This document shows, piece by piece, positions 1 to 41,792 of a DNA stretch of 52,666 nucleotides. The notes under the pieces were generated by a model that was not told where the DNA came from, searched no databases, and worked only from the letters and a program-made list of their open reading frames with translations. Numbering within the stretch: position 1 is the first letter of the stretch; every line of letters starts with the position of its first letter. A program made the position numbers and the translations under genes. This DNA comes from an uncultured Planctomycetales bacterium (GTDB lineage: Bacteria; Omnitrophota; Gorgyraeia; Gygaellales; Profunditerraquicolaceae), in assembly GCA_964603585.1 (NCBI GenBank), contig CAZRVK010000005.1, positions 18,609-71,274 of the forward strand, read 5' to 3'.

Positions 1-711
1 GTTTTTACTGATTCCAAAGAAGTTGTCCCTTTAGCCTCCAGCCAGGATCACAAAAGAGTTTTTGACCATGATCAGGGCCCTAATACCGGAGGCATGGGGG
101 CATATTCTCCGGCGCCGGTCGTAACAGATAAATTATTTAAGGATATCCTGGATAAAATTGTTTATCGGGCGATTGATGGTTTAGCCAGAGAAGGCATAGA
201 ATACAGGGGTGTTTTATATGCCGGGGTGATGCTGACTAAAGATGGGCCTAAGGCTTTGGAATTTAATGTGCGTTTCGGAGATCCGGAAACCGAGGCGGTT
301 TTACCCCGGCTTAAATCGGACTTATTGGAAGTGATGCTGGCGACAGCAGATAGTAAATTAAGCAGGATTGTTAAGTCCGGCGGGTTAGTTTGGGATGACC
401 GCGCCTGTGTCTGTGTAGTTTGTGCTTCAGGAGGTTATCCGGGGGATTATGCAAAAGGCAAAGAGATCCTTGGTTTAGATGCCGCGGCTAAAATAAAAGA
501 TGTGGTAGTATTTCACTCCGGGACAAAATTATCTACTTCCGTTATTTCTCCCGCGTCTTTTAAATACGTAACTAACGGCGGACGGGTATTAGCGGTTACC
601 GGCTTGGGAGATACTATAAAAGAAGCCGTAGATAAAACATATCAGGCGGTAAACAAAATAAGTTTTGACGGGATGCATTATCGTAAAGATATCGGCGGAA
701 GGGCTGTCTGA
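1..711 (+). CDS. purD: Phosphoribosylamine-glycine ligase, 5'-truncated by window edge
   Basis: Frame is open from base 1 (VFTDSKEVVPLASSQDHKRVFDHDQGPNTGGMGAYSP); motifs EFNVRFGDPE, GGYPGDY, TNGGRVL, YRKDIG. Confidence 0.97.
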   Translation, partial: VFTDSKEVVPLASSQDHKRVFDHDQGPNTGGMGAYSPAPVVTDKLFKDILDKIVYRAIDGLAREGIEYRGVLYAGVMLTKDGPKALEFNVRFGDPETEAVLPRLKSDLLEVMLATADSKLSRIVKSGGLVWDDRACVCVVCASGGYPGDYAKGKEILGLDAAAKIKDVVVFHSGTKLSTSVISPASFKYVTNGGRVLAVTGLGDTIKEAVDKTYQAVNKISFDGMHYRKDIGGRAV

Positions 712-725
712 ATTCGGGAGGATGT

Positions 726-911
726 ATGTCAGATAAACGTCGAAATTGGCTTAAACCCAGGTTGATCTTATTGATCAGGAACACGGAGAATTTTACTTTA
801 GTGGCCTGTAAACATGGGGTTGGCCCCAGCGGGCCGGTTACTGTCGATTCTGCTTGTGATAACGGTGACCGGGATTGCATATCTAATTGCGATGCTCTGC
901 TTGTATCCTGA
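726..911 (+). CDS. 61-aa Cys-rich peptide, RiPP precursor-like
   Basis: GGGAGG RBS at 716-721; fills purD-purE gap on same strand; WLKPRL leader-like motif; Cys at 28, 44, 51, 55. Confidence 0.7.
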   Translation: MSDKRRNWLKPRLILLIRNTENFTLVACKHGVGPSGPVTVDSACDNGDRDCISNCDALLVS

Positions 912-950: not shown

Positions 951-1433
951 ATGGGCAAAATAAGTATAATCATGGGAAGTGCAACGGATTTGGATACAGT
1001 GCAGGAAGGGATCAATTTGTTGAAAGAATTTAAGGCTGATTTTGAGGTCAAAGTCCTATCTGCGCACCGCACTCCCAAGGAATTAGCCGCGCATATTGAA
1101 TCATCTGGCCGGCGGGGAGTAAAGGTTTTTATCGCCGCCGCAGGCGGGGCTGCGGCTTTAGCCGGAGTAGTTGCCGCACATACGATTTTACCGGTCGTCG
1201 GTATCCCGATTGAAACCAGTAGTCTAAAAGGATTAGACTCTTTATTATCGACTGTTCAGATGCCAGCAGGGATTCCGGTTGCCTCTATGGCTATCGGTAA
1301 GGCAGGCGCTAAAAACGCCTCGCTTTTTGCCTTGGAGATCCTGGCCTTATCGGACAAATCGATTCAGCTAAAACTTATTGCCTATAAAAAAGCGATGAGA
1401 GAGAAAATTAAACAAACAAAACTCAAAGTTTAG
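951..1433 (+). CDS. purE: N5-carboxyaminoimidazole ribonucleotide mutase
   Basis: IIMGSATD, VLSAHRTP, IAAAGGAAALAGVVAA, QMPAGIPVA; AGGAGG RBS. Confidence 0.96.
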   Translation: MGKISIIMGSATDLDTVQEGINLLKEFKADFEVKVLSAHRTPKELAAHIESSGRRGVKVFIAAAGGAAALAGVVAAHTILPVVGIPIETSSLKGLDSLLSTVQMPAGIPVASMAIGKAGAKNASLFALEILALSDKSIQLKLIAYKKAMREKIKQTKLKV

Positions 1434-1505: not shown

Positions 1506-2588
1506 ATGATTGCTACTAAAATCATTAAATTCGATCCTGCAAATCCCGAAGCTGCATATCTTAAAGAGGCAGCGCAGGTGATTAAAAGCGGGGGGCTGGT
1601 AATTATTCCTACAGAAACAGTTTATGGTATCGCGGCAAATGCCTTGGATAAATCCGCCTCTGCGAAACTTTATGAAATAAAAGGCCGGCCTAAGGAAAAA
1701 CGCTTTTCTTTGCACATTGCCATGAAAAGCCAGGTTAAGGATTTTGCTTATGATATACCTCTTGGCGCATGGAAATTGATGGACAAATTCTGGCCTGGGC
1801 CGATAACCTTGGTTTTAAAGGCGAAAGAATCATGGGTTAATTCCCAGGGGTCCGAGACTATCGGGATACGTATGCCGTCTGATGAAATAGCTTTAAGGGT
1901 GATCGCTCTATCCGGTGTCCCGGTAATTTGCCCTTCGGCTAATCTTTCGGGAAAACCTTCTCCGCTTGATTTTCCGGAGGCAATCAAGGATTTTGATGGC
2001 GTAGTCAACCTTGCCATTGATGCAGGCCGTACCCTCCTGGGGGTTGATTCCTCGGTGGTAGATTTGACCCGAACGCCGCCGAGCATTTTGCGCCGGGGGG
2101 CAATAAAAGAAGATGAGATCATTTCTACGGTTTCACGTAAGACTGTGCTTTTTGTTTGTACCGGGAACTCTTGCCGTTCGGTAATGGCTAAAGCGCTTCT
2201 GCTTGATAAACTTAAAAAAATGAAGCGCCTGGATGTGGAAGTTTTGTCTGCCGGTTTATTGATGTTAGATGGGACGGGGGCGACGAAAGCAACCCGGGAG
2301 GTCCTTGCCCGGGAAGGGATAGATGTTTCAGAACACCGTTCGCAGAAAATAACCGAGGATATGTTGAGGCGAGCGGATATTATCCTTGTGATGGAAAAGA
2401 TGCATGAAGAAAGGATTTTGCAGGCGGCCCCGGAAATAAAGAACCGGGTGTTCCTTTTGAAAGAGTTTGTCAAGTCACGGGATGCCAATTTGAATATTCC
2501 GGACCCGATCGGGCAGCCGGTAGAAGTTTATCGAGAGACTTTAGAGATGATTAAAGAAGCTGTGGAGAGGATGTATCCGATAATTTAA
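1506..2588 (+). CDS. tsaC: TsaC/Sua5 threonylcarbamoyl-AMP synthase fused to low-molecular-weight protein phosphatase domain
   Basis: N-half PTETVYGI, FWPGPITL, GIRMP, PSANLSGKPSP; C-half VLFVCTGNSCRS and IPDPIG. Confidence 0.9.
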   Translation: MIATKIIKFDPANPEAAYLKEAAQVIKSGGLVIIPTETVYGIAANALDKSASAKLYEIKGRPKEKRFSLHIAMKSQVKDFAYDIPLGAWKLMDKFWPGPITLVLKAKESWVNSQGSETIGIRMPSDEIALRVIALSGVPVICPSANLSGKPSPLDFPEAIKDFDGVVNLAIDAGRTLLGVDSSVVDLTRTPPSILRRGAIKEDEIISTVSRKTVLFVCTGNSCRSVMAKALLLDKLKKMKRLDVEVLSAGLLMLDGTGATKATREVLAREGIDVSEHRSQKITEDMLRRADIILVMEKMHEERILQAAPEIKNRVFLLKEFVKSRDANLNIPDPIGQPVEVYRETLEMIKEAVERMYPII

Positions 2589-2618: not shown

Positions 2619-3080
2619 ATGCGGCCGATACTTATTGCTTCTGACCATGCAGGGTTTGTTTTAAAGGAAAAAATCAAGGCTTATATGAAAGAAAACGGGT
2701 TTGCGGTAAAAGACCTGGGGGCTTATTCCAAAGAGCGCTGCGATTATCCCGGGTTTGCCGCTTCATTGGCCAAGGAGATTTCTAAAAGGCACAATGACCG
2801 CGGGGTGCTTGTTTGTAAATCAGGGATCGGCAACTCTATTGTCGCTAATCGTTTTCCGGGGGTGAGGGCCGCATTGGCTTATAACATCAAGGCCGCCCGG
2901 CTTTCCCGGGAGCATAACGATAGTAATGTCCTGGTGATGGGGTCGGCTTTTGTCAAACCGGTTTTAGCAAAGCGGATGTTCAAGATTTGGATGAATACGG
3001 AATTTCAAGGTGGCCGCCATACGAAGCGGCTTAACAGTATAAAAAAGATAGAAAAGGATATCAAGAAATGGAAAGCTTAA
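2619..3080 (+). CDS. rpiB: Ribose-5-phosphate isomerase B
   Basis: [44 protein letters not shown]. Confidence 0.95.
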
Positions 3081-4324
3081 AACATATCAAGAACACTGAT
3101 CCGGAGATTTATGCCGCAATTCATGCCGAATTGAAGCGGCAGGAAGATAATTTAGAGCTTATTGCCTCGGAGAATTTTACCTCCTTAAGCGTATTGGAGG
3201 CACAAGGCTCCATATTTACCAATAAATACGCTGAAGGCTACCCTGGCGCGCGCTGGTATGGCGGATGCCTCAATGTGGATGCCGCAGAAACCCTTGCTAT
3301 TGAACGGGCAAAGAAATTGTTTTTAGCAGAACATGCTAATGTCCAGGCGCATTCCGGGACACAGGCGAATATGGCGGTATATTTTGCAGTTTTAAAACCC
3401 GGAGATACGGTTTTAGCGCTTGACCTTGCCTGTGGCGGGCATCTGTCTCACGGGCATACGCATAATTTTTCCGGGATGTTTTACAATATCGTGACTTATG
3501 GTGTGGATAAGTTGACCGAGATGCTGGATTATGACTATATTATGGCTTTGGCAAAACAGCATAAGCCAAAGCTGATCTTGGCGGGCGCTTCTGCTTATCC
3601 CAGGATCATGGATTTTGAGAAATTCCGCAAGATCGCCGATAGTGTAGGAGCCTATTTATTCGTGGATATGGCTCATATTGCCGGATTGGTGGCTGCCGGG
3701 GTGCATCCATCCCCGGTTCCTTATGCGGAGTTCGTTACTTCTACTACCCATAAGACGTTGCGCGGGCCGCGGGGCGGATTCGTGCTTTGCAAAAAGGAAT
3801 TTGCCAAAAAGATCGATTCGCGTGTTTTTCCTGGGATCCAGGGTGGTCCGCTTATGCATGTGATCGCGGCCAAGGCAGTCGCTTTTCGCGAGGCAATGCA
3901 CGATGATTTCAAGGTTTATCAGCAGCAGATCGTTAAGAATTCTCAAGCGTTAAGTTCTGCATTGGCTAATCATAAATTCCGTATTGTTTCTGGAGGGACC
4001 GATACCCATCTTATGCTGGTTGATCTTAATTCTAAAGGTATTACCGGTAAAGAGGCATCTTTCTGTTTGGAAGAGGCTGGGATTACGGTAAACAAGAACC
4101 TTATCCCTTTTGATCAGAAGAACCCGGCAACTACCAGTGGGATCCGCCTGGGGAGTGCCGCGGTGACTACCAGAAAAATGAAAGAGCATGAGATGAACGA
4201 GATCGCCGGTTTCATTAACCAGGTGATCGAAAGAAGCGGCGATATTTCCGTGATTAAAGAGGTCAAAAGAAAAGTCATGGTTTTGACCAAGAAATTCCCT
4301 CTATACCCGGAGCTTATGGTATGA
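3068..4324 (+). CDS. glyA: Serine hydroxymethyltransferase
   Basis: [41 protein letters not shown]. Confidence 0.98.
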
Positions 4325-7798: not shown

Positions 7799-8386
7799 AT
7801 GCACAGCTTAAGCGATGAAGAGGTAATGCTGGGTTATAAGCGAGGCGAGGTGGAAGCCATGGATGAGCTTTTGAGGCGGTATAAAACTCCGGTATATCGT
7901 TTTGTCTGGCGGATATGCACTAACGCTACCGAGGCAGAGGATATTGCGCAGGAGGTGTTCTTAAAAATCCATGAGTTCAGAGGGGAGTATCAGGTGCGCG
8001 GCAAGTTTTCTACCTGGATATTCAGCATTGCCCATAACTTAAGCATTAGCCGCCTGCGTAGACGGCGACTGTTTGGGCTTTGGCCGCGTAAGCCTGATGA
8101 CCCGGATGCGGAAGTTGAGTTTAGAAGTCCTGATCCTTCTCCAAAGGAAATAGCGGGTTGTAATGAAGTGGCGGTGATTTTAGCCAAACACGTGCAAAGC
8201 CTTCCCTTTCTCCAGAGAGAAGCTTTGATCTTACGGGAGTATCAAGATATGGATTATGCCGAGATTGCGAAGATTTTAAAAAAATCACTGGGCACAGTCA
8301 AAACTCTTATCCGCCGGGCGCGGATGAACTTAAAGAATAAACTTCTTCCCTGTTTAGAAGAGTTAAAGGGAGGCTTACATGAATAA
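7799..8386 (+). CDS. ECF RNA polymerase sigma factor
   Basis: AEDIAQEVFLK, FSTWIFSIAHN (region 2); REALILREYQDMDYAEIA, GTVKTLIRRAR (region 4). Confidence 0.95.
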   Translation: MHSLSDEEVMLGYKRGEVEAMDELLRRYKTPVYRFVWRICTNATEAEDIAQEVFLKIHEFRGEYQVRGKFSTWIFSIAHNLSISRLRRRRLFGLWPRKPDDPDAEVEFRSPDPSPKEIAGCNEVAVILAKHVQSLPFLQREALILREYQDMDYAEIAKILKKSLGTVKTLIRRARMNLKNKLLPCLEELKGGLHE

Positions 8387-9773
8387 ATGCCATGTTTTAA
8401 AAGAGTTAAGCGGTTATTTGGACAATCAGCTGAATAATGCCAAGAAGCAGCATGTTGAGGAACATCTGCGTGATTGCCGACAGTGCCAGGAAGAGCTGGC
8501 CCGGTTAAGGGCGGTTTCAGAGAGCCTTAAGGCATGGCAGGCGCCGGAAGTTAATGCGGATTTTGATGTTCGGGTAAGGAATAAGATTGTGTCCCGGGAA
8601 CTTGAAAGGGGCGCAGTTAAAATGAAAAATAAGACTTGGGCGATTTTAGTGCCATCGAGTGCAATAGCCGGGATTTTACTCTTTGTGTTCTTGGGGGGAT
8701 TTTTACAGACGTATGTAAAGCGTGGTTTTCAGGGTAATTATAAAGTTTATAATGAAAAGCCAGTCAGGGTTAACATTGACAGGGAATATGACAAAATTAC
8801 TTTTTTGGCGATGGATGGAATTAATAATTCCCGAGGGGATGGGAGTTCCTCTTACATGAAAGTTGGGTCTTCATCTCCCCAGTATCAAGTTGGGAAAGGG
8901 GAGTTTCTCAGTAATATTGATAGCGCCAATTCAAGAGTTAGCAACGGTATTTCTTCTTGGGGGAAAAGAGGGGATATTTCTTCTGTGGCTGATGGCAGCA
9001 TAGGTGCTAAACCTGCATCGGAAAGCATTAATTATGAGGTTAATCCTTACGGCCAGGGGCAAGTGATCGTTATTCAGCCGAGCCTGCCTGCAACCGGGGT
9101 AGGAGAAAAGATCATCCGTACCGCCCAGGTGCAATTGGAAGTAACTGACGGCCAGGATGTCTATAAAAAAGCCGCGCAGGTTTGCCAGGAATTAGGCGGT
9201 TATTTATCCGCATCTAATTTCTATAAAGATGCCGAAGGACGTGAAGCGGGCATGATCACAATGCGTATCCCAAAGGATAAATTCCTCACTGCCTTGGATA
9301 AGCTGGGGACTTTAGGAAAAGTCAAGAACATGAATACCGACAGCCAGGATGTGGCGCAGGAGTATTCTAATTTGCAGAGCCGGCTGGATGCGGCAATGGT
9401 GGTTTATAATAAAATGCTGGAAGCTTTGAATAAAAGGCAGGTGAATATCCCTGAAGCAATGAGGCTGGAATCAGAGCTTACTCCGGTATTGCAAAGAGTC
9501 CAGGATCTCAAGAATCAGATCGAAGCATTGAACAACGCTATCTCATTTACTACCATCAGGTTGAGTTTTTATGAGCCGCAGGTATCGGAAAAGGTACTCA
9601 AGGAAAGCACCAGGTTTATTCAGGATGGCTTGATTACTGCCAAGATCAATGCTGTTAAGTTGTTTGCTAAAGCTATACCCGCGGTGATTGTTTTAGGGTT
9701 TTGGCTGGTAGTTGCCGTGGTATTGGCATTTTTACTGAAAGCTGTGATTGTAAAGCTTTTTAAACGGGGGTAG
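8379..9773 (+). CDS. Zinc-finger anti-sigma factor with TM segment and C-terminal DUF4349-like domain
   Basis: LSGYLD..HLRDCRQC (HxxxCxxC); TM at about residues 90-110; KIIRTAQVQLEV..DV..EY coiled coil; C-terminal TM. Confidence 0.85.
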   Translation: MNKCHVLKELSGYLDNQLNNAKKQHVEEHLRDCRQCQEELARLRAVSESLKAWQAPEVNADFDVRVRNKIVSRELERGAVKMKNKTWAILVPSSAIAGILLFVFLGGFLQTYVKRGFQGNYKVYNEKPVRVNIDREYDKITFLAMDGINNSRGDGSSSYMKVGSSSPQYQVGKGEFLSNIDSANSRVSNGISSWGKRGDISSVADGSIGAKPASESINYEVNPYGQGQVIVIQPSLPATGVGEKIIRTAQVQLEVTDGQDVYKKAAQVCQELGGYLSASNFYKDAEGREAGMITMRIPKDKFLTALDKLGTLGKVKNMNTDSQDVAQEYSNLQSRLDAAMVVYNKMLEALNKRQVNIPEAMRLESELTPVLQRVQDLKNQIEALNNAISFTTIRLSFYEPQVSEKVLKESTRFIQDGLITAKINAVKLFAKAIPAVIVLGFWLVVAVVLAFLLKAVIVKLFKRG

Positions 9774-13396: not shown

Positions 13397-14986
13397 ATGA
13401 AGTTTTCCCAGAATGCGGTAAAGATACTGGGGCTTTTTTATTCCCACCCAAAAGAGCAATTCTATATTCATCAGTTAGGCCGCCTGCTAAAAAAGAAACC
13501 CGGGGTTTTTCAGCGGGTCCTGTATAATCTTGAGAAGCAAGGGGTTCTAAAAAGCCGGTTTTTAGCCAATGCCCGGTATTTTAGCCTGAATGAGAAGTAT
13601 CCGTTTTATAAGGAGCTTAAGAGTATTATTCAGAAAATGACCCCGGTCATATCCCTGGTTTTTCTTTTGAATACGTTATTAATTTCTCCGAATACCGCCT
13701 TTTGCGATAATGAAATTCTCCAGACTCTTGAACTCTCTTCTTTTTCGGAAGCGGCTAAGATAGCGCTTAAGAATAATAAAGATATCCAGATCCAGGAGCA
13801 GGCGCTGAATATAGCCAGTGCAGATATTTTGAATGCAAAAAGCGAGTTTTTGCCTAAAGTGGATTTTAACTCAAGCTATACACATAATGGCGCGGTGCTT
13901 CATTCTGGAAACTCTACTGCCGCCAAGAAGGACCCCGGGATATTTTCCGGTTTCAAGAACGATAATGCTCTGGGGATAAGCGTCAGCGAAACTGTTTATA
14001 ACGGCGGTGCAAACACTGCTCTCCTTCGCCAGGCACAGCTTGCTTTAAAAGAACAGACACAAACCCTAAGGGCTACCAGGCTCAATGTTGAACTGGAAGC
14101 AAAAAGGCTTTATTATGGCTTGTTGCTTGCTTATGAGACACGGCGTATCGCCGCTAATCTCATTCAGCAGGCCCAGAGCCATTATGAACAGATAAAGCAA
14201 AACCTCTCCCAGGGGACATCTTCGCGGTTTGATCTTCTGCAATCCAAAGTGCAGGTTTCACTTCTTATGCCTCAATTGATCAATGCCGATAATTCCATAG
14301 ATTTGATAGTAGCAGAGTTTAATAAACTTTTAGGCAGGAATGTAATGGCTAAGATTATTGTTGTCGATAAATTGAATTATGAGCCTTTTGAAATTAAAGA
14401 ATCGGATTTCTTGAAAGAGGCTTATTTGAATGAGCCGGAAATGATCTTAAGGTCACTGGGCATAGATATCAGCAAGTGGGCGGTTAAATACGCCCGTGCC
14501 GGATGGCTGCCGCAGGTTGAGGCGGGTGCGGATTATTCATACAGGTCCAATAACCTGGGGAATATGGTTAACAGTAAGCATAATAACTGGAACATTGGTT
14601 TTACTGTGCGTGTACCGATATTCGATGGGTTCTCCACTAAGGCCAAGGTAGATGCTGCCCGGGCAAAATATATGCAGTCAGTGATCGGCAAGGATAATTA
14701 CGCTGATCAGGTGGCAGTGGATGTCAGGCAGGCCTGTCTTGATCTTAAGCAGGCGAGCGCGATCATTGAATCTCAAAGGGATAATTTAGAGGATGCCAGT
14801 GAAGCATTGGAGATCTCCTACGTTCGTTACAATAATGGTGTGGGGATAAACCTGGATGTAATGGATGCCCAGGTTTCTTTGGCGAATGTGGAAAAGAACT
14901 TTGCCGAGGGTGTTTATGACTATATTATGGCAAAGGCAAAACTGGATAGGTTAATGGGCAAGGGCGGGATCGAGGAGGCCAAATGA
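13397..14986 (+). CDS. Winged-HTH::TolC-family outer-membrane efflux protein fusion
   Basis: First ~80 aa wHTH-like (FYIHQLGRLL..PGVFQRVLYNLEKQGVL..NARYFSLN); internal signal-like segment from 13637; two OEP repeats (ALKNNKDI, FLPKVDF, WLPQV, VPIFDG). Confidence 0.85.
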   Translation: MKFSQNAVKILGLFYSHPKEQFYIHQLGRLLKKKPGVFQRVLYNLEKQGVLKSRFLANARYFSLNEKYPFYKELKSIIQKMTPVISLVFLLNTLLISPNTAFCDNEILQTLELSSFSEAAKIALKNNKDIQIQEQALNIASADILNAKSEFLPKVDFNSSYTHNGAVLHSGNSTAAKKDPGIFSGFKNDNALGISVSETVYNGGANTALLRQAQLALKEQTQTLRATRLNVELEAKRLYYGLLLAYETRRIAANLIQQAQSHYEQIKQNLSQGTSSRFDLLQSKVQVSLLMPQLINADNSIDLIVAEFNKLLGRNVMAKIIVVDKLNYEPFEIKESDFLKEAYLNEPEMILRSLGIDISKWAVKYARAGWLPQVEAGADYSYRSNNLGNMVNSKHNNWNIGFTVRVPIFDGFSTKAKVDAARAKYMQSVIGKDNYADQVAVDVRQACLDLKQASAIIESQRDNLEDASEALEISYVRYNNGVGINLDVMDAQVSLANVEKNFAEGVYDYIMAKAKLDRLMGKGGIEEAK

Positions 14987-15819: not shown

Positions 15820-16557
15820 ATGATCACCATTAAGACGGAAAATCTCACCCGCAAGTTCGGGGAATTGACTGCCTTGGACAGCCTGGATCTTGAAGTAAGT
15901 GAAGGCGAGATCTTTGGCCTGGTTGGTCCTGACGGGGCAGGTAAAACTACCACTATGCGCCTTTTAACCGGGATCCTGGATCCGACTGCCGGGCAAGCCT
16001 GGGTTTATGATAAGCATACGTTTAAGGAATCCGAAGCCCTAAAAGAAAATATCGCTTATATGTCCCAGCGATTCGGGCTTTACGAGGAATTAAGCGTTCA
16101 GGAGAATATAAATTTCTACGCCGATATTTACGGCGTAGATAAAAAAAAACGCGTTGAAACGATCGACCGGTTGCTTGAGTTTTCTGGACTCCTGCCTTTT
16201 AAACAGCGTTTTGCCGGTAAGCTTTCCGGAGGGATGAAGCAGAAGTTAGGTTTGGCCTGTGCTTTGATCCATACCCCAAAAGTTTTATTTCTGGATGAAC
16301 CCACTAATGGGGTTGATCCGGTTTCCCGCCGTGATTTCTGGAATATCCTCTATGATTTGCTTAAGGAGAAAGTCACCATCTTCTGCTCTACCTGTTATCT
16401 GGATGAAGCCGAACGCTGCGGCCGGGTGGGGCTTATGCATAAGGGCCGGCTTTTACGTTGTGACCCTCCGGGTAAGATTAAAAAGGAATACAATGCTAAA
16501 ACCCTGGAAGAGGCGTTTGTTATTATTATCAAGGAATATGAAGGAAAACACTCTTAA
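15820..16557 (+). CDS. ABC ATP-binding protein (YbhF N-half-like)
   Basis: GPDGAGKTT, LSGGMKQK, LFLDEP; H-loop reads STCY. Confidence 0.93.
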   Translation: MITIKTENLTRKFGELTALDSLDLEVSEGEIFGLVGPDGAGKTTTMRLLTGILDPTAGQAWVYDKHTFKESEALKENIAYMSQRFGLYEELSVQENINFYADIYGVDKKKRVETIDRLLEFSGLLPFKQRFAGKLSGGMKQKLGLACALIHTPKVLFLDEPTNGVDPVSRRDFWNILYDLLKEKVTIFCSTCYLDEAERCGRVGLMHKGRLLRCDPPGKIKKEYNAKTLEEAFVIIIKEYEGKHS

Positions 16558-17503
16558 CAATATCGCGGTTAGCGTATCTGATTTGGAGAAAAAATTCGGA
16601 GGATTTGTTGCGGTTAACCGGATTAATTTCGCTGTCAACCAAGGAGAGATCTTTGGTTTTTTAGGGCCTAACGGTGCGGGAAAATCTACCACCATCAGGA
16701 TGCTTTGCGGGATACTTAAGCCTACCTCCGGCAGCGGCAAGGTGGGGGGATTCGATATAATCAAGGAACAGGATAAAATAAAGGAAAATATCGGGTATAT
16801 GTCGCAAAAGTTTTCACTCTATAACGATTTGACTATCGAGGAGAATATTAATTTCTACAGCGGTATATACAAAATCCCTAAGAAGGACAAAGAGTCTCGT
16901 TTCAAAGAAACTATTCTTACTGCCGGCCTTGAAGGTATGGAGTCAAACCTGACCGCGACACTTGCCGGTGGATGGAAACAGCGGCTTGCCCTGGGGTGCG
17001 CGCTAATTCATAAGCCAAAGATAATCTTTCTCGATGAGCCTACTTCCGGGGTTGATCCGATAACCCGCGCTAACTTTTGGGGGGTAATTAAGGGCCTGGC
17101 CGCGCAAGGGGTAACGGTTTTTGTCACCACGCATTATATGGATGAAGCGGAAAACTGTAATCGCATGGTGATCATTTATCACGGAACGATTATTGCCAGC
17201 GGTACTCCCCAGGAGATGAAAACCAAATGTATGAAAAATGATGTGCTTGAGATAACCTTAGCTGATGCGCAAAAGTGGCTTGAGAAGATCAGTAAGATCA
17301 AAGGGATCAAAGAAGCGGCGCTTTTCGGGGCCAATATCCATACAGTTGTCGATGACAGCGCTCAAGCTATCCCTGAACTAAAAGAGTTCTTGAAAAAAGA
17401 GAATATAGGGGAGTTCAGTGTGAATAAGATCCTCCCTTCGCTAGAGGATGTGTTTGTTTCATCAATAGAGAATTATGATCGTTCAGAGCTTAAAAAGAAT
17501 TAG
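16538..17503 (+). CDS. ABC ATP-binding protein (YbhF C-half-like)
   Basis: GPNGAGKST, LAGGWKQR, FLDEP, TTHY; ATG 16538 with AAGGA RBS preferred over 16295. Confidence 0.93.
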   Translation: MKENTLNNIAVSVSDLEKKFGGFVAVNRINFAVNQGEIFGFLGPNGAGKSTTIRMLCGILKPTSGSGKVGGFDIIKEQDKIKENIGYMSQKFSLYNDLTIEENINFYSGIYKIPKKDKESRFKETILTAGLEGMESNLTATLAGGWKQRLALGCALIHKPKIIFLDEPTSGVDPITRANFWGVIKGLAAQGVTVFVTTHYMDEAENCNRMVIIYHGTIIASGTPQEMKTKCMKNDVLEITLADAQKWLEKISKIKGIKEAALFGANIHTVVDDSAQAIPELKEFLKKENIGEFSVNKILPSLEDVFVSSIENYDRSELKKN

Positions 17504-20306: not shown

Positions 20307-20375
20307 ATTTTCATAGTAAGAAAACGGTTAATAATCCTGGTGGGGGGATAATATATAGTTTGTTCTACGTGAATC

Positions 20376-20403
20376 GTAGGGGATGGTCGCGACCATCCAC
20401 TAC
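20376..20403 (+). repeat. GTAG-type REP hairpin (compensatory variant)
   Basis: gtaggggatggtcgcgaccatccactac. Confidence 0.85.
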
Positions 20404-20407
20404 AAAT

Positions 20408-20467
20408 AAAGGGGACGTTGCAATAAAGGGGACGCCTGCCTGCCGGCAGGCAGGTTTCTATTTTTCC
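20408..20467 (+). repeat. GGGGACGTTTCTA element locus B: truncated copy plus interrupted solo arm
   Basis: aaaggggacgtt (20408-19), then aaaggggacg[20-bp insert]tttctatttttcc. Confidence 0.9.
20435..20454. mobile_element. 20-bp perfect palindrome CCTGCCTGCCGGCAGGCAGG inserted in locus B
   Basis: Self-complementary; removing it restores the consensus arm exactly. Confidence 0.8.
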
Positions 20468-20526
20468 TATAATTCGCCCGCCGTTGTGTTATAATAACTT
20501 TCCTGATTAAAAGGAGTTTGTATCTT

Positions 20527-38833: not shown

Positions 38834-39880
38834 ATGCTAAAATATCTTTATGCGTTGGCTACTGGAGAAAAAAAAGGGATTATTGCTGATCTCTTAAGAG
38901 CGATCCTGTTCTTATTATCACTTGTTTATGGGATAGCGGTGCGCATTTTGATCAAATGCCATTCATTGTTTAGCTGCCGCCTTGATTGTAAGGTGGTCAG
39001 TGTCGGCAATATCACTTTAGGTGGGACAGGAAAGACGTCTTTTGTGGAATATCTTGCAAGGTATTTACTGGAACAAGACCTTCATCCGGCGATCTTGAGC
39101 CGGGGGTATAAAAAGGACGGCGCATATCTTCAGGGTTTGGGGGATGAACCTTATATGTTAAAGGCGCGCCTTAAGGATGTTCCGGTTATTGTAGATACTG
39201 ACCGTATAAATGGGGCAAGGCGGGCGATAGTTGACCATGGGGTGGATACCGTTATTTTAGATGACGGATTCCAGCAATGGAAAATAAGAAAAGATTTAGA
39301 GATCGTAATGATCGATGCGGCATTCTCTTTTGCGGGATCTTATATGCTGCCGCGCGGATTTTTGCGTGAGCCGTTATCGTCTCTTAAACGTGCCGATATT
39401 TTTGTCCTGGCAAAAACCAACCTTTATCCTGACACGGACAATTTAGAAAGATATCTGCGCCTTAATAATCCCCGGGCTCTGATCGTAAAATCAGAGCACC
39501 AGCCGGTGGGTTTGTATGCTTTGGATGACCATAACCGGGTTTTTACAGTTGATCATATAAAGGATAAATCCGTGGTTTTGTTTTCCGGGATTGCCGATCC
39601 TTCTTCATTCGATAATTTAATGCATGAACTAGGGGCGCATATCCTGCACTCGTTTCAATTCCCGGACCATCATTATTATTCGGATGCGGAATTAAATGGG
39701 ATATTCCAGACGGCACGCAAAGCGCATAGTGATATGGTGGTGACTACAGAAAAAGATGCGGCCAGGATCGCAGGGGTCAAGGCGGATGACATGGCAGTAT
39801 TTGTTCTGCGCATTGAATTAAAGGTTACCCATAATGAAAACGAATTACGTTCTCGATTACATAAGCTGTATTTGCCTTAA
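38834..39880 (+). CDS. lpxK: Tetraacyldisaccharide 4'-kinase
   Basis: SVGNITLGGTGKT, LSRGY, GDEP, ILDDGFQ, LPRGFLREP, FPDHH, TTEKD. Confidence 0.95.
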   Translation: MLKYLYALATGEKKGIIADLLRAILFLLSLVYGIAVRILIKCHSLFSCRLDCKVVSVGNITLGGTGKTSFVEYLARYLLEQDLHPAILSRGYKKDGAYLQGLGDEPYMLKARLKDVPVIVDTDRINGARRAIVDHGVDTVILDDGFQQWKIRKDLEIVMIDAAFSFAGSYMLPRGFLREPLSSLKRADIFVLAKTNLYPDTDNLERYLRLNNPRALIVKSEHQPVGLYALDDHNRVFTVDHIKDKSVVLFSGIADPSSFDNLMHELGAHILHSFQFPDHHYYSDAELNGIFQTARKAHSDMVVTTEKDAARIAGVKADDMAVFVLRIELKVTHNENELRSRLHKLYLP

Positions 39881-41792
39881 GCTGTTAGGCCCGGTTTTAC
39901 GCTTCCTTCCGCTTGGCGTCAGCCTTTTTATCGGAAAAAGTATCGGGAATATTTTATATATTCTTGATCGTAAACATCGGGCAATAGTTTATGCAAATGT
40001 AAAACGCGCCCTTTCCAGTGAACTTTCCTGCCAGGAAATATCCAGGATTACCCGTAAATTCTACACAAACATCGGGCAAAGCCTGATTGAGATATTTCTT
40101 TTTCCGTTAATTGACAAGAAGTATATGGATAAATACGTTGAGATCGAAGGGCGCGATAATCCGAAGGAGGCCTTTAGAAAAGGCAAAGGAGTGATTTTGG
40201 TCGCCATGCATACCGGTAATTGGGAGCTTTCCAGTATCGTTTGTGCGAACCTGGGATTTTCTTTTAATCTGCTTGTAGGCGACCAAAGGTTGCCGCGGTT
40301 GAATGATCTTTTGAACTTCTACCGTATAAATAAAGGGTATAAGATCCTTGAGCGGCAGAATCAAACCCGCCAGCTGATCAAGGTTTTGCGGGCCAATGAG
40401 GCGATCGGTATAACCGTGGATCAGGGGGGCAAAGGGGGACAGATCGTGAAGTTTTTTGGCAAAGAAGCCTCGATGTCCACCGGAGCGATCAAGATGGCTT
40501 TAAAATACGGGTCAGTGATCTTGCCGGCTTTTTATACGCGTATCAATGGTCCATATCAGAAGGTGATTATTGGAAAGCCTTTGGAAATAAGCGTTACCGG
40601 GGATTTAGAAACCGATGTCAGGGATAATTTACAGCGCCTGATCAGCCATTATGAAGGGTTGATCAGGAAATACCCTGAGGAGTATCTTTGGACATATAAA
40701 GTCTGGAAATACGGGCGTCAAAAGGATATTTTGATCTTAAGCGACGGCCGGCCCGGGCATTTACGGCAGTCCGAAGCCGTCGGTAATATCGTTTCCGCAA
40801 TTTACTCCGAAAAAGGGATCAAGGCCGATATCAGTATTTTAAAGGTAGAGTTTAAAAGCAGATTAGCCGCTAAATTGCTGGGGATCGGTTGCTGTTTTTC
40901 CGGTAAATATAATTGCCAAGGATGCCTGTGGTGCCTGCGGCATGCCTTGACCGAACCCGGTTATAAAAATCTTATTGCGGCTAAACCGGATATTGTTATT
41001 TCTGCCGGATCTTCGCTTGCTCCGGTAAATTACATTCTTTGCCGGCAAAACCTGGCGAAATCCATTGTCCTGATGCGCCCGGGATATTTAAGTGCCCGCC
41101 GGTTTGATCTGGTGGTTATGCCGTATCACGACCGCAGGATCCTGCATAAGAATGTGGTAACAACTCAAGGTGCATTGAATTTGATCGATACAGAGTATTT
41201 GAAGAAGCAAAGCCAGGAGTTCATGGATGCGTTATCATCTAAGGATGGCCGGGTTTGTTTTCTGCATGAGCCGATAGGATTGCTGGTAGGCGGAAACAGC
41301 AAAGGTTTTGTTCTTAGCCTAAATGCGTTAAAAGAAGTTACAAAACAGTTAAAAACCGCTTTGGATCGCATAAATAACGATATTCTTATAACCACTTCCC
41401 GGCGGACATCAGCCGAGATAGAGGGTTTATTGGAAAAAGAGTTTAGCGGATATCCATTATGCAAGAAATTGATTATCGCCAATAAAGAAAATCCGCCTTT
41501 TGCCGTAGGAGGGATCATGGGATTGGCCTGGCTGCTGGTTGTTTCTCCGGAAAGCATTTCGATGATCTCCGAGGCGGTTACCAGCGGCCGGCAGGTATTA
41601 GTGATTGACTTGCCGGGATTAAGCAAGAAACACCGGAGGTTCCTGGATAATTTTGCCAAAGAAAAATATATCTCTTTAGTAAAACCAGAAGGATTAGCAG
41701 AAGCAGTACAAAATGCACGGCGTATTAAAACCCCCGCGCGTATCTTAAACGATAATGAGATGGTTAAGGAGGCATTAAAGAAGACCTTATGA
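39834..41792 (+). CDS. Lipid A acyltransferase (LpxL/HtrB-like)::ELM1/DUF1022-like fusion
   Basis: HTGNWE, DQG, FFG, PEEYLWTYKVW; then ILSDGRPGHLRQS, PDIVISAG, FDLVVMPYHD, TTSRRT, ESISMISEA. Confidence 0.85.
   Translation: MKTNYVLDYISCICLKLLGPVLRFLPLGVSLFIGKSIGNILYILDRKHRAIVYANVKRALSSELSCQEISRITRKFYTNIGQSLIEIFLFPLIDKKYMDKYVEIEGRDNPKEAFRKGKGVILVAMHTGNWELSSIVCANLGFSFNLLVGDQRLPRLNDLLNFYRINKGYKILERQNQTRQLIKVLRANEAIGITVDQGGKGGQIVKFFGKEASMSTGAIKMALKYGSVILPAFYTRINGPYQKVIIGKPLEISVTGDLETDVRDNLQRLISHYEGLIRKYPEEYLWTYKVWKYGRQKDILILSDGRPGHLRQSEAVGNIVSAIYSEKGIKADISILKVEFKSRLAAKLLGIGCCFSGKYNCQGCLWCLRHALTEPGYKNLIAAKPDIVISAGSSLAPVNYILCRQNLAKSIVLMRPGYLSARRFDLVVMPYHDRRILHKNVVTTQGALNLIDTEYLKKQSQEFMDALSSKDGRVCFLHEPIGLLVGGNSKGFVLSLNALKEVTKQLKTALDRINNDILITTSRRTSAEIEGLLEKEFSGYPLCKKLIIANKENPPFAVGGIMGLAWLLVVSPESISMISEAVTSGRQVLVIDLPGLSKKHRRFLDNFAKEKYISLVKPEGLAEAVQNARRIKTPARILNDNEMVKEALKKTL

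Follow-up and report, generated by a model that had tools for sequence, protein, structure and literature searches.

Gene content of the window

The window, by which we mean the whole stretch of 52.7 kb of DNA that was analyzed, begins inside purD, and between this gene and purE it contains a gene encoding a peptide of 61 amino acids. The features of this region are listed here with coordinates, strand and the evidence for each.

1–711 (+): 3′ part of purD (phosphoribosylglycinamide synthetase), truncated at position 1 of the window; Pfam GARS_A 2.9e-41 and GARS_C 3.8e-33; stop codon at 709–711
716–721 (+): Shine-Dalgarno-like GGGAGG, 4 nt upstream of the ATG, read from the sequence
726–911 (+): 61-aa precursor-family gene; open reading frame (ORF), coding-like codon usage, homologs and leave-one-out HMM
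726–812 (+): conserved leader, residues 1–29, with basic N-terminus, W8-x-K10-P11-x-L13-I14, E21, L25 and C28-K29; alignment columns; putative PqqD/RRE-binding segment
813–908 (+): hypervariable core, residues 30–61, with Cys44, Cys51 and Cys55; 58-sequence alignment, family statistics and pLDDT < 50
888–908 (+): C-terminal C-x5-S-COOH motif (C55 D A L L V S61); family statistics
951–1433 (+): purE (AIR carboxylase/mutase); Pfam AIRC 5.6e-55; RBS AGGAGG; 39 nt after the stop of the peptide

The ORF at 726–911 (+) starts with ATG, is closed by the stop codon at 909–911 and encodes the product MSDKRRNWLKPRLILLIRNTENFTLVACKHGVGPSGPVTVDSACDNGDRDCISNCDALLVS. A sequence-only reading of this DNA had described an RBS and a 61-aa ORF between purD and purE, encoding a WLKPRL leader and a Cys-rich core ending in Ser, and every detail it listed is found in the sequence and its translation, i.e., WLKPRL, a Gly/Pro stretch, Cys28/44/51/55 beside Asp/Asn residues and the terminal Ser. 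Its coding character was assessed with a log-likelihood of codon usage, for which the genes of the window served as training set. The frame of the ORF is the best of all six (+0.13 per codon), its score lies at the 11th percentile among 61-codon windows of real genes, a level reached by just 0.35% of off-frame windows. The ORF at 726–911 is a genuine gene. An overlapping ORF in the +2 frame at 814–930 (+; 38 aa, MGLAPAGRLLSILLVITVTGIAYLIAMLCLYPDTPVFG) is probably not a gene because an RBS is lacking and its codon score is poorer; it contains a hydrophobic stretch that resembles a transmembrane segment. The region is also present in an independent assembly, the Logan contig L001 (SRR15237810), in which the same 1479 nt differ by two substitutions, at positions 214 and 232, both in purD. 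The end of L001 coincides with position 1 of the window, at the same base inside purD, and both assemblies appear to break there.

AlphaFold, supplied with the 58-sequence alignment, predicts no secondary structure for the peptide (pLDDT 57, pTM 0.18); the confidence is highest in the leader (69–78) and below 50 in the core. A profile search of the PDB with the precursor family returned no match to a solved structure. As no fold is predicted and this search was empty, the reading of the peptide as a folded mini-protein was rejected.

For the remaining gene content, all window ORFs of at least 100 aa were scanned with Pfam, excluding shadows of larger genes on the other frame or strand. Besides purD and purE, the window genes comprise Sua5/TsaC-LMW-PTP, rpiB, glyA, dCMP deaminase, nrdR, the CCA-adding enzyme, a sigma/anti-sigma pair, an efflux cluster, uvrD, greA, aroC, aroK, dprA, topA, an xerC/D-like gene, kdtA, lpxK and LPS-core glycosyltransferases. 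Two of the encoded proteins are fusions. The product of 1506–2588 (+), 360 aa in length, joins a Sua5/YciO/YrdC (TsaC-like) domain to a low-molecular-weight phosphotyrosine phosphatase domain, and the product of 39834–41792 (+), 652 aa, joins a lipid A biosynthesis acyltransferase domain to an ELM1-like (Mito_fiss_Elm1) domain; the latter gene lies within the LPS-core cluster of kdtA, lpxK and GT4/GT9 genes. In the efflux cluster, two ABC ATPase ORFs at 15820–16557 and 16295–17503 (+) overlap by ~260 nt in different frames, which may be due to a mis-assigned start or a frameshift.

The purD-purE gap and its counterparts in related genomes

The window comes from a Candidatus Omnitrophota bacterium. 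The adjacency of purD and purE is kept in 61 related Omnitrophota loci (purE at least 63% identical). The gap between the two genes measures at most 100 nt in 49 of these 61 loci, and the larger gaps of the other 12 hold low-complexity palindromic repeats or unrelated genes. Using tblastn with the peptide, nothing below E = 0.7 was obtained from the purD-purE gaps of the relatives, and HMMs for the precursor family, PqqD and radical SAM (rSAM) proteins had no match in 160 related purE loci covering 818 kb in total. The check whether the gap is empty in relatives, which the sequence-only reading had suggested, thus finds the peptide absent from all 160 purE loci, and the possibility that the ORF is conserved at this place was rejected. 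Since the gap mostly does not exceed 100 nt and the peptide has no relative in the 160 loci, the ORF is a lineage-specific insertion that almost exactly fills the purD-purE gap.

The Rfam scan of the whole window yielded nothing at gathering score, and the scan of 600–1100 returned only a chance match to Mu-gpT-DE (E = 2). The folding of the gap is not unusual (z = −1.5), and on the Rfam result together with this z-score a riboswitch or other known RNA was rejected; neither a promoter nor a terminator consensus was found in the gap. These results bear on the explanation that the ORF is a chance open frame in a non-coding spacer, or that the segment acts as a cis-regulatory RNA or a leader-peptide attenuator of purE. 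Several Omnitrophota relatives do have non-coding, repeat-filled purD-purE spacers of 140–315 nt, and an open frame of 61 codons within 239 nt is by itself not very improbable. However, besides the lack of an Rfam match at gathering score, of unusual folding and of a terminator, codon usage looks coding, and the peptide has full-length homologs with motifs conserved across phyla, as described below. Its leave-one-out profile score refutes this explanation in practice. We regard it as highly improbable.

Spacers with low-complexity inverted repeats are found between purD and purE of other Omnitrophota at L002:2801–3000, L090:2860–3000 and L011:2858–3000 as well as in L091, L023, L028 and L106; an example of such a repeat is AATCCCAAATCCCAAAT...TTTGGAATTTGGAATTT. 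In the window, the GC-rich perfect palindrome CCTGCCTGCCGGCAGGCAGG is located at 20435–20454 upstream of uvrD. Its close variants in the spacers of L002 and L011 suggest that it is a REP-like element common to the phylum.

A family of precursor-like peptides with conserved leader and variable core

With the peptide encoded by 726–911 as single query, neither Pfam nor NCBIfam gave a match at E ≤ 10, and a word-indexed homolog search returned only the peptide itself. An exhaustive phmmer (HMMER) search of 1.84e9 representatives, in which the window peptide carries the label P0001, revealed four homologs of 60–64 aa (E 1.6e-4 to 6.8e-4), which are 34–43% identical to the window peptide in full-length alignment. 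A profile search expands the family to about 60 clusters of 58–86 aa, two shorter, fragment-like entries aside, none of which has a Pfam domain and which are named 'hypothetical protein' at most.

The sequence pattern of this family divides the peptides into two parts. The first ~29 residues are nearly invariant in the alignment of 58 sequences (consensus M-DEPTRRAWSRPELIVLVRSGPEEAVLxxCK), and the following ~30 residues are hypervariable except for the Cys positions. Invariant across this alignment are W8, P11, L13, I14, C28 and C44, and K29, which forms the Cys-Lys junction ~20 residues past the Trp, is at least 90% conserved; the window peptide and its four homologs additionally share L25, K29, G36, C55 and S61. 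Exactly four Cys are present in 48 of the 60 family members, the last Cys lies exactly six residues from the C-terminus in 56 of 60, and the C-terminal residue is Ser in 56 of 60; the window peptide has all three features. The C-x5-S ending recurs in an independently retrieved set of reference genomes, archaeal copies included. Homologs with the same leader and Cys pattern, on which the earlier interpretation depended, hence exist by phmmer, profile search and family statistics.

The window peptide itself fits the pattern W-x-[KR]-P-x-L-I-[VIL]-[LI]-[VI]-[RK] with W8 L K10 P11 R L13 I14 L L I R18. A profile from which the window peptide was left out still recognizes it with 44.9 bits (E 1e-6, Z = 1.84e9), and one from which P0001–P0005 were all omitted gives it 37.8 bits (E = 1.7e-4). 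Its leader is the most divergent of the family and deviates at four of ten nearly invariant positions, of which V15L and V17I are conservative and E22N and V24T are not. Curated NCBIfam models matched P0001–P0005 with 0 families at E ≤ 10, and curated precursor models gave only chance-level matches to the 58 members at E ≤ 1. In the literature search, no paper mentioning SynChlorMet or the leader-motif strings was found, and the papers on RiPPs and BGCs of Omnitrophota give general counts only and do not describe the family. The window peptide is a divergent, lone and new member of an unannotated precursor family.

Many family members lie beside PqqD and radical SAM/SPASM genes

The genes directly beside family members encode PqqD proteins, one to three rSAM/SPASM enzymes and proteins with an ScmC-like domain. 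The family member P0046 (L166–L168) directly follows genes for a 654-aa rSAM protein with a precomputed Pfam match for an ScmC domain, a 396-aa rSAM, a 100-aa PqqD and a 394-aa rSAM, and downstream of it are a PRMT-like methyltransferase, a B12-binding rSAM and a second PqqD. The cluster of P0004, which belongs to the same Lys-rich leader subtype as the window peptide, has the order precursor, PqqD, rSAM/SPASM, 368-aa signal-peptidase-I-like protein, precursor and ABC exporter. The second family member of this cluster (L170:448–621, MVMKKQKWKKPKLIVLVRGDGQESVLVTCKQGNQSGSNDSSDMECRNSSCKNCSARSGS) is encoded upstream of PqqD, and the cassette is flanked by two different precursors. It adjoins rplM-rpsI-argCJBD, and since its rplM is 91% identical to that of the MAG Omnitrophica CG1_02_40_15, the contig can be assigned to Omnitrophota, which on this identity makes the closest full cassette one from the same phylum as the window.

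Pairs of PqqD and precursor genes also occur in L163–L165, and on the contig of P0051 they are repeated within a toxin-antitoxin-rich island with one rSAM. In L163 the pairs are located at 2687–3324, 8108–8736 and 14643–14942 (L164 and L165 are arranged likewise), the single rSAM lies at L163:715–2097, and the island includes HEPN/MNT, HicA, PIN, BrnT/A, HipA and AbiEii. Some PqqD and precursor copies of L163–L165 look degraded, e.g., L164:5477–5665, which is without the C-x5-S end. The genes after P0051 are bAvd, which encodes a DGR accessory protein, and ORF fragments that resemble reverse transcriptase (L163:10368–11838), the canonical position for a DGR target, and P0003 adjoins an RVT_1 fragment (L162:1152–1517). 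The idea of a diversity-generating retroelement that targets the core was dropped because no VR/TR-type repeat was found in L163:9800–12200.

The leader pattern was also used to scan 185,579 species-representative genomes; the 24 confirmed loci are from Planctomycetota, Methanothrix, Methanomicrobiales, Actinomycetes/Thermoleophilia, Desulfomonilia, Desulfobacterales, Anaeromyxobacter, Bacteriovoracaceae, Poribacteria, Chloroflexota and Omnitrophota (L184). We scored the neighborhoods within 8 kb using our own PqqD and rSAM HMMs. PqqD and/or rSAM genes lie within this distance at 14 of the 24 loci, with up to five precursors per locus. Counting identical contigs once, 12 loci encode an ScmC-like domain and 11 an S24-like peptidase, and ABC exporters related to that of the P0004 cluster occur in six more loci. 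The rSAM proteins adjacent to family members contain CX3CX2C and a C-terminal CX2CX5CX2C...C cluster. The family is genomically tied to PqqD/rSAM cassettes. The proposal that the leader is of the kind read by PqqD/RRE domains, and that the Cys-rich peptides form a substrate family of rSAM/SPASM enzymes, is supported by the homologs encoded beside PqqD, rSAM/SPASM and ScmC-like genes.

This leader might also be seen as a signal peptide, which would make the product a secreted lipoprotein or Tat substrate instead of a RiPP precursor. The Tat consensus is S/T-R-R-x-F-L-K and the lipobox is L-[ASTVI]-[GAS]-C, and in the window peptide K-R-R-N-W-L-K resembles the twin-arginine motif and L-V-A-C the lipobox. 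However, the would-be hydrophobic region is broken by R18, N19 and E21 (R-S-G-P-E-E in the family consensus), the second of the two Arg varies among family members (K-x-W, T-W), and the lipobox is often broken before the conserved Cys (LDVC, LGFC, LVNC, LTVC). Moreover, methanogenic archaea have the same leader, and it goes together in the genomes with PqqD/rSAM genes. There is little room for a signal peptide, which we consider scarcely credible here.

Lone copies of the precursor gene

In the window, no ORF of at least 150 aa contains CX3CX2C. Neither did tblastn of the window with three rSAMs, the B12-rSAM, five PqqDs, the ScmC domain, both peptidases and the methyltransferase give any match, and our own HMMs, run over the 52.7 kb, found only the precursor and no PqqD or rSAM. 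A second precursor within the window, for which a tBLASTn/HMM search had been suggested, is likewise absent; an apparent copy at 20375–20470 is a chance similarity (RRGWSRP) in a palindrome-rich spacer. No cassette-type exporter and no S24-like peptidase is encoded anywhere in the 52.7-kb window, the sole exporter match being the ATPase of a generic ABC-2 efflux system at 16.6–17.2 kb, to which the ATPase of the cassette-type ABC exporter is 23.5% identical. The earlier statement that no rSAM, RRE or transporter gene lies nearby therefore holds for rSAM and RRE genes over the whole window and has to be qualified for transporters, as a generic TolC-HlyD-ABC-2 efflux cluster is present at 13.4–19.8 kb. 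Because no cassette gene was found in the window, which starts inside purD, the gene at 726–911 is a lone copy over at least 51.7 kb downstream.

Such lone copies, without PqqD or rSAM within 8 kb, account for 10 of the 24 reference-genome loci. The genome CAWDSQ01 contains a cassette (L199) and in addition two lone copies (L189 and L197), whose leaders are almost identical to that of the cassette precursor; this pattern is expected if one RRE and one set of maturases serve dispersed precursors. The orphan status described for the window gene is thus shared by many family members, and one genome has lone copies alongside a cassette. The lone copies of L186, L193 and L197 (regions L186:4547–7573, L193:6763–7392 and L197:4320–7081), from deltaproteobacterial and Chloroflexia MAGs, have near-identical cores (CNRGPxGC.VI..S). 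Sequence inspection reveals upstream of all three a multi-PAS regulator with LuxR-type HTH, and L186 and L197 have a PilZ-like gene in common; a PilZ gene also follows P0002. An alternative maturase beside lone copies was rejected, the shared neighbor of L186, L193 and L197 being this PAS-LuxR-type regulator, which has no homolog in the window.

The isolation of the window gene could also mean that it is a stranded relic, i.e., a true family member whose cassette was lost or was never present and whose product is an unmodified, decaying or co-opted small Cys peptide with a role such as metal binding or regulation. This would agree with the absence of a maturase from the 52.7 kb, with the most divergent leader of the family and its E22N and V24T exchanges at nearly invariant positions, with the closest relative P0002, for which no maturase is visible on its short contig either, and with a purD-purE insertion that is unique among 160 purE loci. 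However, the ORF is intact and preceded by a strong RBS. With only 35–45% identity to relatives, its product still has the invariant residues, the full set of four Cys and the C-x5-S ending in exact form, and this speaks for ongoing selection on modification-linked features. Lone copies furthermore constitute ~40% of the family, and one genome has them alongside a cassette. A relic is accordingly a minority view that we judge unlikely, with somewhat more to be said for it than for a chance ORF or a signal peptide.

Proposed maturation and significance

We favor, and hold to be probable, that 726–911 is a functional RiPP precursor gene of a cassette-linked family, present as a lone copy that would need maturases encoded outside the 52.7-kb window and is probably co-transcribed with purD and purE. 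The RiPP reading is based on the observed coupling to PqqD and rSAM genes, on the conserved leader followed by a variable core, on tandem multi-copy precursors and on the lack of a predicted fold. PqqD-family RiPP recognition elements bind leader peptides, as in PqqA-PqqD, the YxxPxL motif of lasso leaders and MftA-MftB, and rSAM/SPASM enzymes cross-link Cys residues or modify C-termini in sactipeptides, ranthipeptides, PQQ and mycofactocin. By analogy, the 29-residue leader (W-x-K/R-P-x-L-I-V-L-V-R...EE.VL..C-K) would be bound by a small stand-alone PqqD-family RRE protein, with the W-x-K-P-x-L-I-V strand as the putative RRE-binding element, and the PqqD protein would present the variable Cys-containing core to the rSAM/SPASM enzymes. 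The cassettes encode two or three of these enzymes, one often fused to an ScmC-like domain, and from the enzyme class the most likely products are Cys-derived, thioether-type cross-links. From the constancy of the C-x5-S-COOH end, the product may carry a defined ring or a modification at its C-terminus. The leader would then be removed by an S24/S26-type peptidase and the product secreted by the ABC exporter. For the window gene, lying between purD and purE and probably transcribed with both, maturation would occur in trans by enzymes encoded elsewhere.

A more far-reaching interpretation is that the family constitutes the substrate class of ScmC-type multi-radical-SAM cassettes and a new RiPP class whose hallmark is a ring or modification at the invariant C-x5-Ser-COOH end, and that lone copies in housekeeping or regulator loci (purD-purE; PAS-LuxR) are matured in trans and couple product output to the metabolic state, e.g., as signals. 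We lean against this interpretation in its full extent but take it to be a conceivable one.

The analysis provides a sequence definition, with leader/core boundaries and an invariant C-terminus, for a family of which we found no description in any curated library or paper. Its members occur in bacteria as well as in methanogenic archaea, and the link to cassettes that encode two or three radical SAM/SPASM enzymes makes an uncharacterized class of peptide modification directly testable. About 40% of the copies lie far from any maturase and would be missed by cluster-based genome mining; the copy in the purine operon of this Omnitrophota bacterium illustrates the dispersed type of precursor with unusual clarity.

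Comparison with known systems

The system that the sequence-only reading had named is SynChlorMet, represented by the NCBIfam models TIGR04248 (ScmD), TIGR04250 (ScmE) and TIGR04251 (ScmF) and by Pfam PF27840 (ScmC). In both systems at least two PqqE-like rSAM/SPASM enzymes and a PqqD homolog are found together, around the precursors in the case of the present family, where a putative ScmC-type domain joins them, and the distribution is similar, with deltaproteobacterial lineages and methanogens. The 654-aa protein (L166/L167) has a precomputed match to PF27840; the Pfam scan run here did not list this domain, and the Pfam version used may predate the model. The C-terminal 294 residues of this protein are 43–52% identical over most of their length to proteins at 10 other loci, and a match of 34 residues to its C-terminal domain lies at the end of L184. 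However, the rSAMs of the family cassettes score 68–99 bits against the ScmE/ScmF cutoff of 400 (11 of 13 rSAMs from seven family loci scored, the other two having no match at E ≤ 1e-20), and the PqqDs reach 24.8 and 26.0 bits against the ScmD cutoff of 100. In contrast to SynChlorMet, the ScmC-like domain is often fused to an rSAM in the family cassettes, which add an S24-like peptidase, an ABC exporter and sometimes a PRMT-like methyltransferase and a B12-rSAM. The proposed resemblance therefore extends to gene architecture, and as the enzymes fall below the curated ScmE/ScmF/ScmD thresholds, 'SynChlorMet-type' describes architecture and not membership. To our knowledge, no precursor is identified in the description given by the SynChlorMet curators. 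The models for AhbD, NirJ, StsB, AlbA, PapB, PqqE and mycofactocin match the cassette rSAMs at similar sub-threshold levels, all far below any curated family cutoff, which points to generic rSAM/SPASM peptide maturases that form a distinct clade.

The family resembles PqqA/PqqD/PqqE in that a short peptide opening with W-x-K-P-x-hydrophobic occurs together with a PqqD chaperone and an rSAM/SPASM enzyme, and the PqqD and PqqE models are among the matches for the cassette proteins, but below their cutoffs. Different from PQQ biosynthesis, the window peptide has no E-x3-Y pair and no Tyr at all, none of the 58 family members matches the PqqA model, and the core of ~30 residues is Cys-rich and hypervariable.

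Sactipeptides and ranthipeptides including SCIFF, with the maturases AlbA, StsB, PapB and CteB, are most likely the chemical analogy of the family. They likewise have a Cys-rich core, often with Asp/Asn/Ser/Thr neighbors, and rSAM/SPASM maturases, and the StsB, AlbA and PapB models match the cassette rSAMs over nearly the full length, though sub-threshold. Their precursor models do not match the family, however, in which the RRE is a separate PqqD protein and not the N-terminal domain of the maturase, several rSAMs occur per cassette, and the precursors have a conserved C-K junction and the C-x5-S-COOH end.

Lasso leaders, with the YxxPxL motif and a PqqD-like B1 protein, resemble the family in the aromatic-x-x-P-x-L motif and in the stand-alone PqqD-family protein, and lasso PqqD models match the cassette PqqDs at E ~1e-5. 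In contrast, neither a lasso cyclase nor a B2 protease is present at the inspected family loci, the 'rhodolasso' model matches only two of 58 members (E = 0.016), and the family peptides are Cys-rich and end in Ser.

Finally, mycofactocin biosynthesis (MftA/MftB/MftC) also combines a PqqD-like chaperone with an rSAM/SPASM enzyme, which acts on the extreme C-terminus of a short peptide, and the mycofactocin rSAM model is among the top matches for the rSAM-ScmC fusions at 97–106 bits, sub-threshold to its cutoff of 265. The C-terminus of the family is C-x5-S and not G-V-Y, its core is hypervariable and its precursors are multi-copy, yet by this analogy the invariant C-terminal residue hints at C-terminal chemistry. 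The family can be placed with a known kind of system, RRE-dependent radical-SAM RiPPs, in which it has defining features of its own, and the interpretation given in the sequence-only reading is essentially supported.
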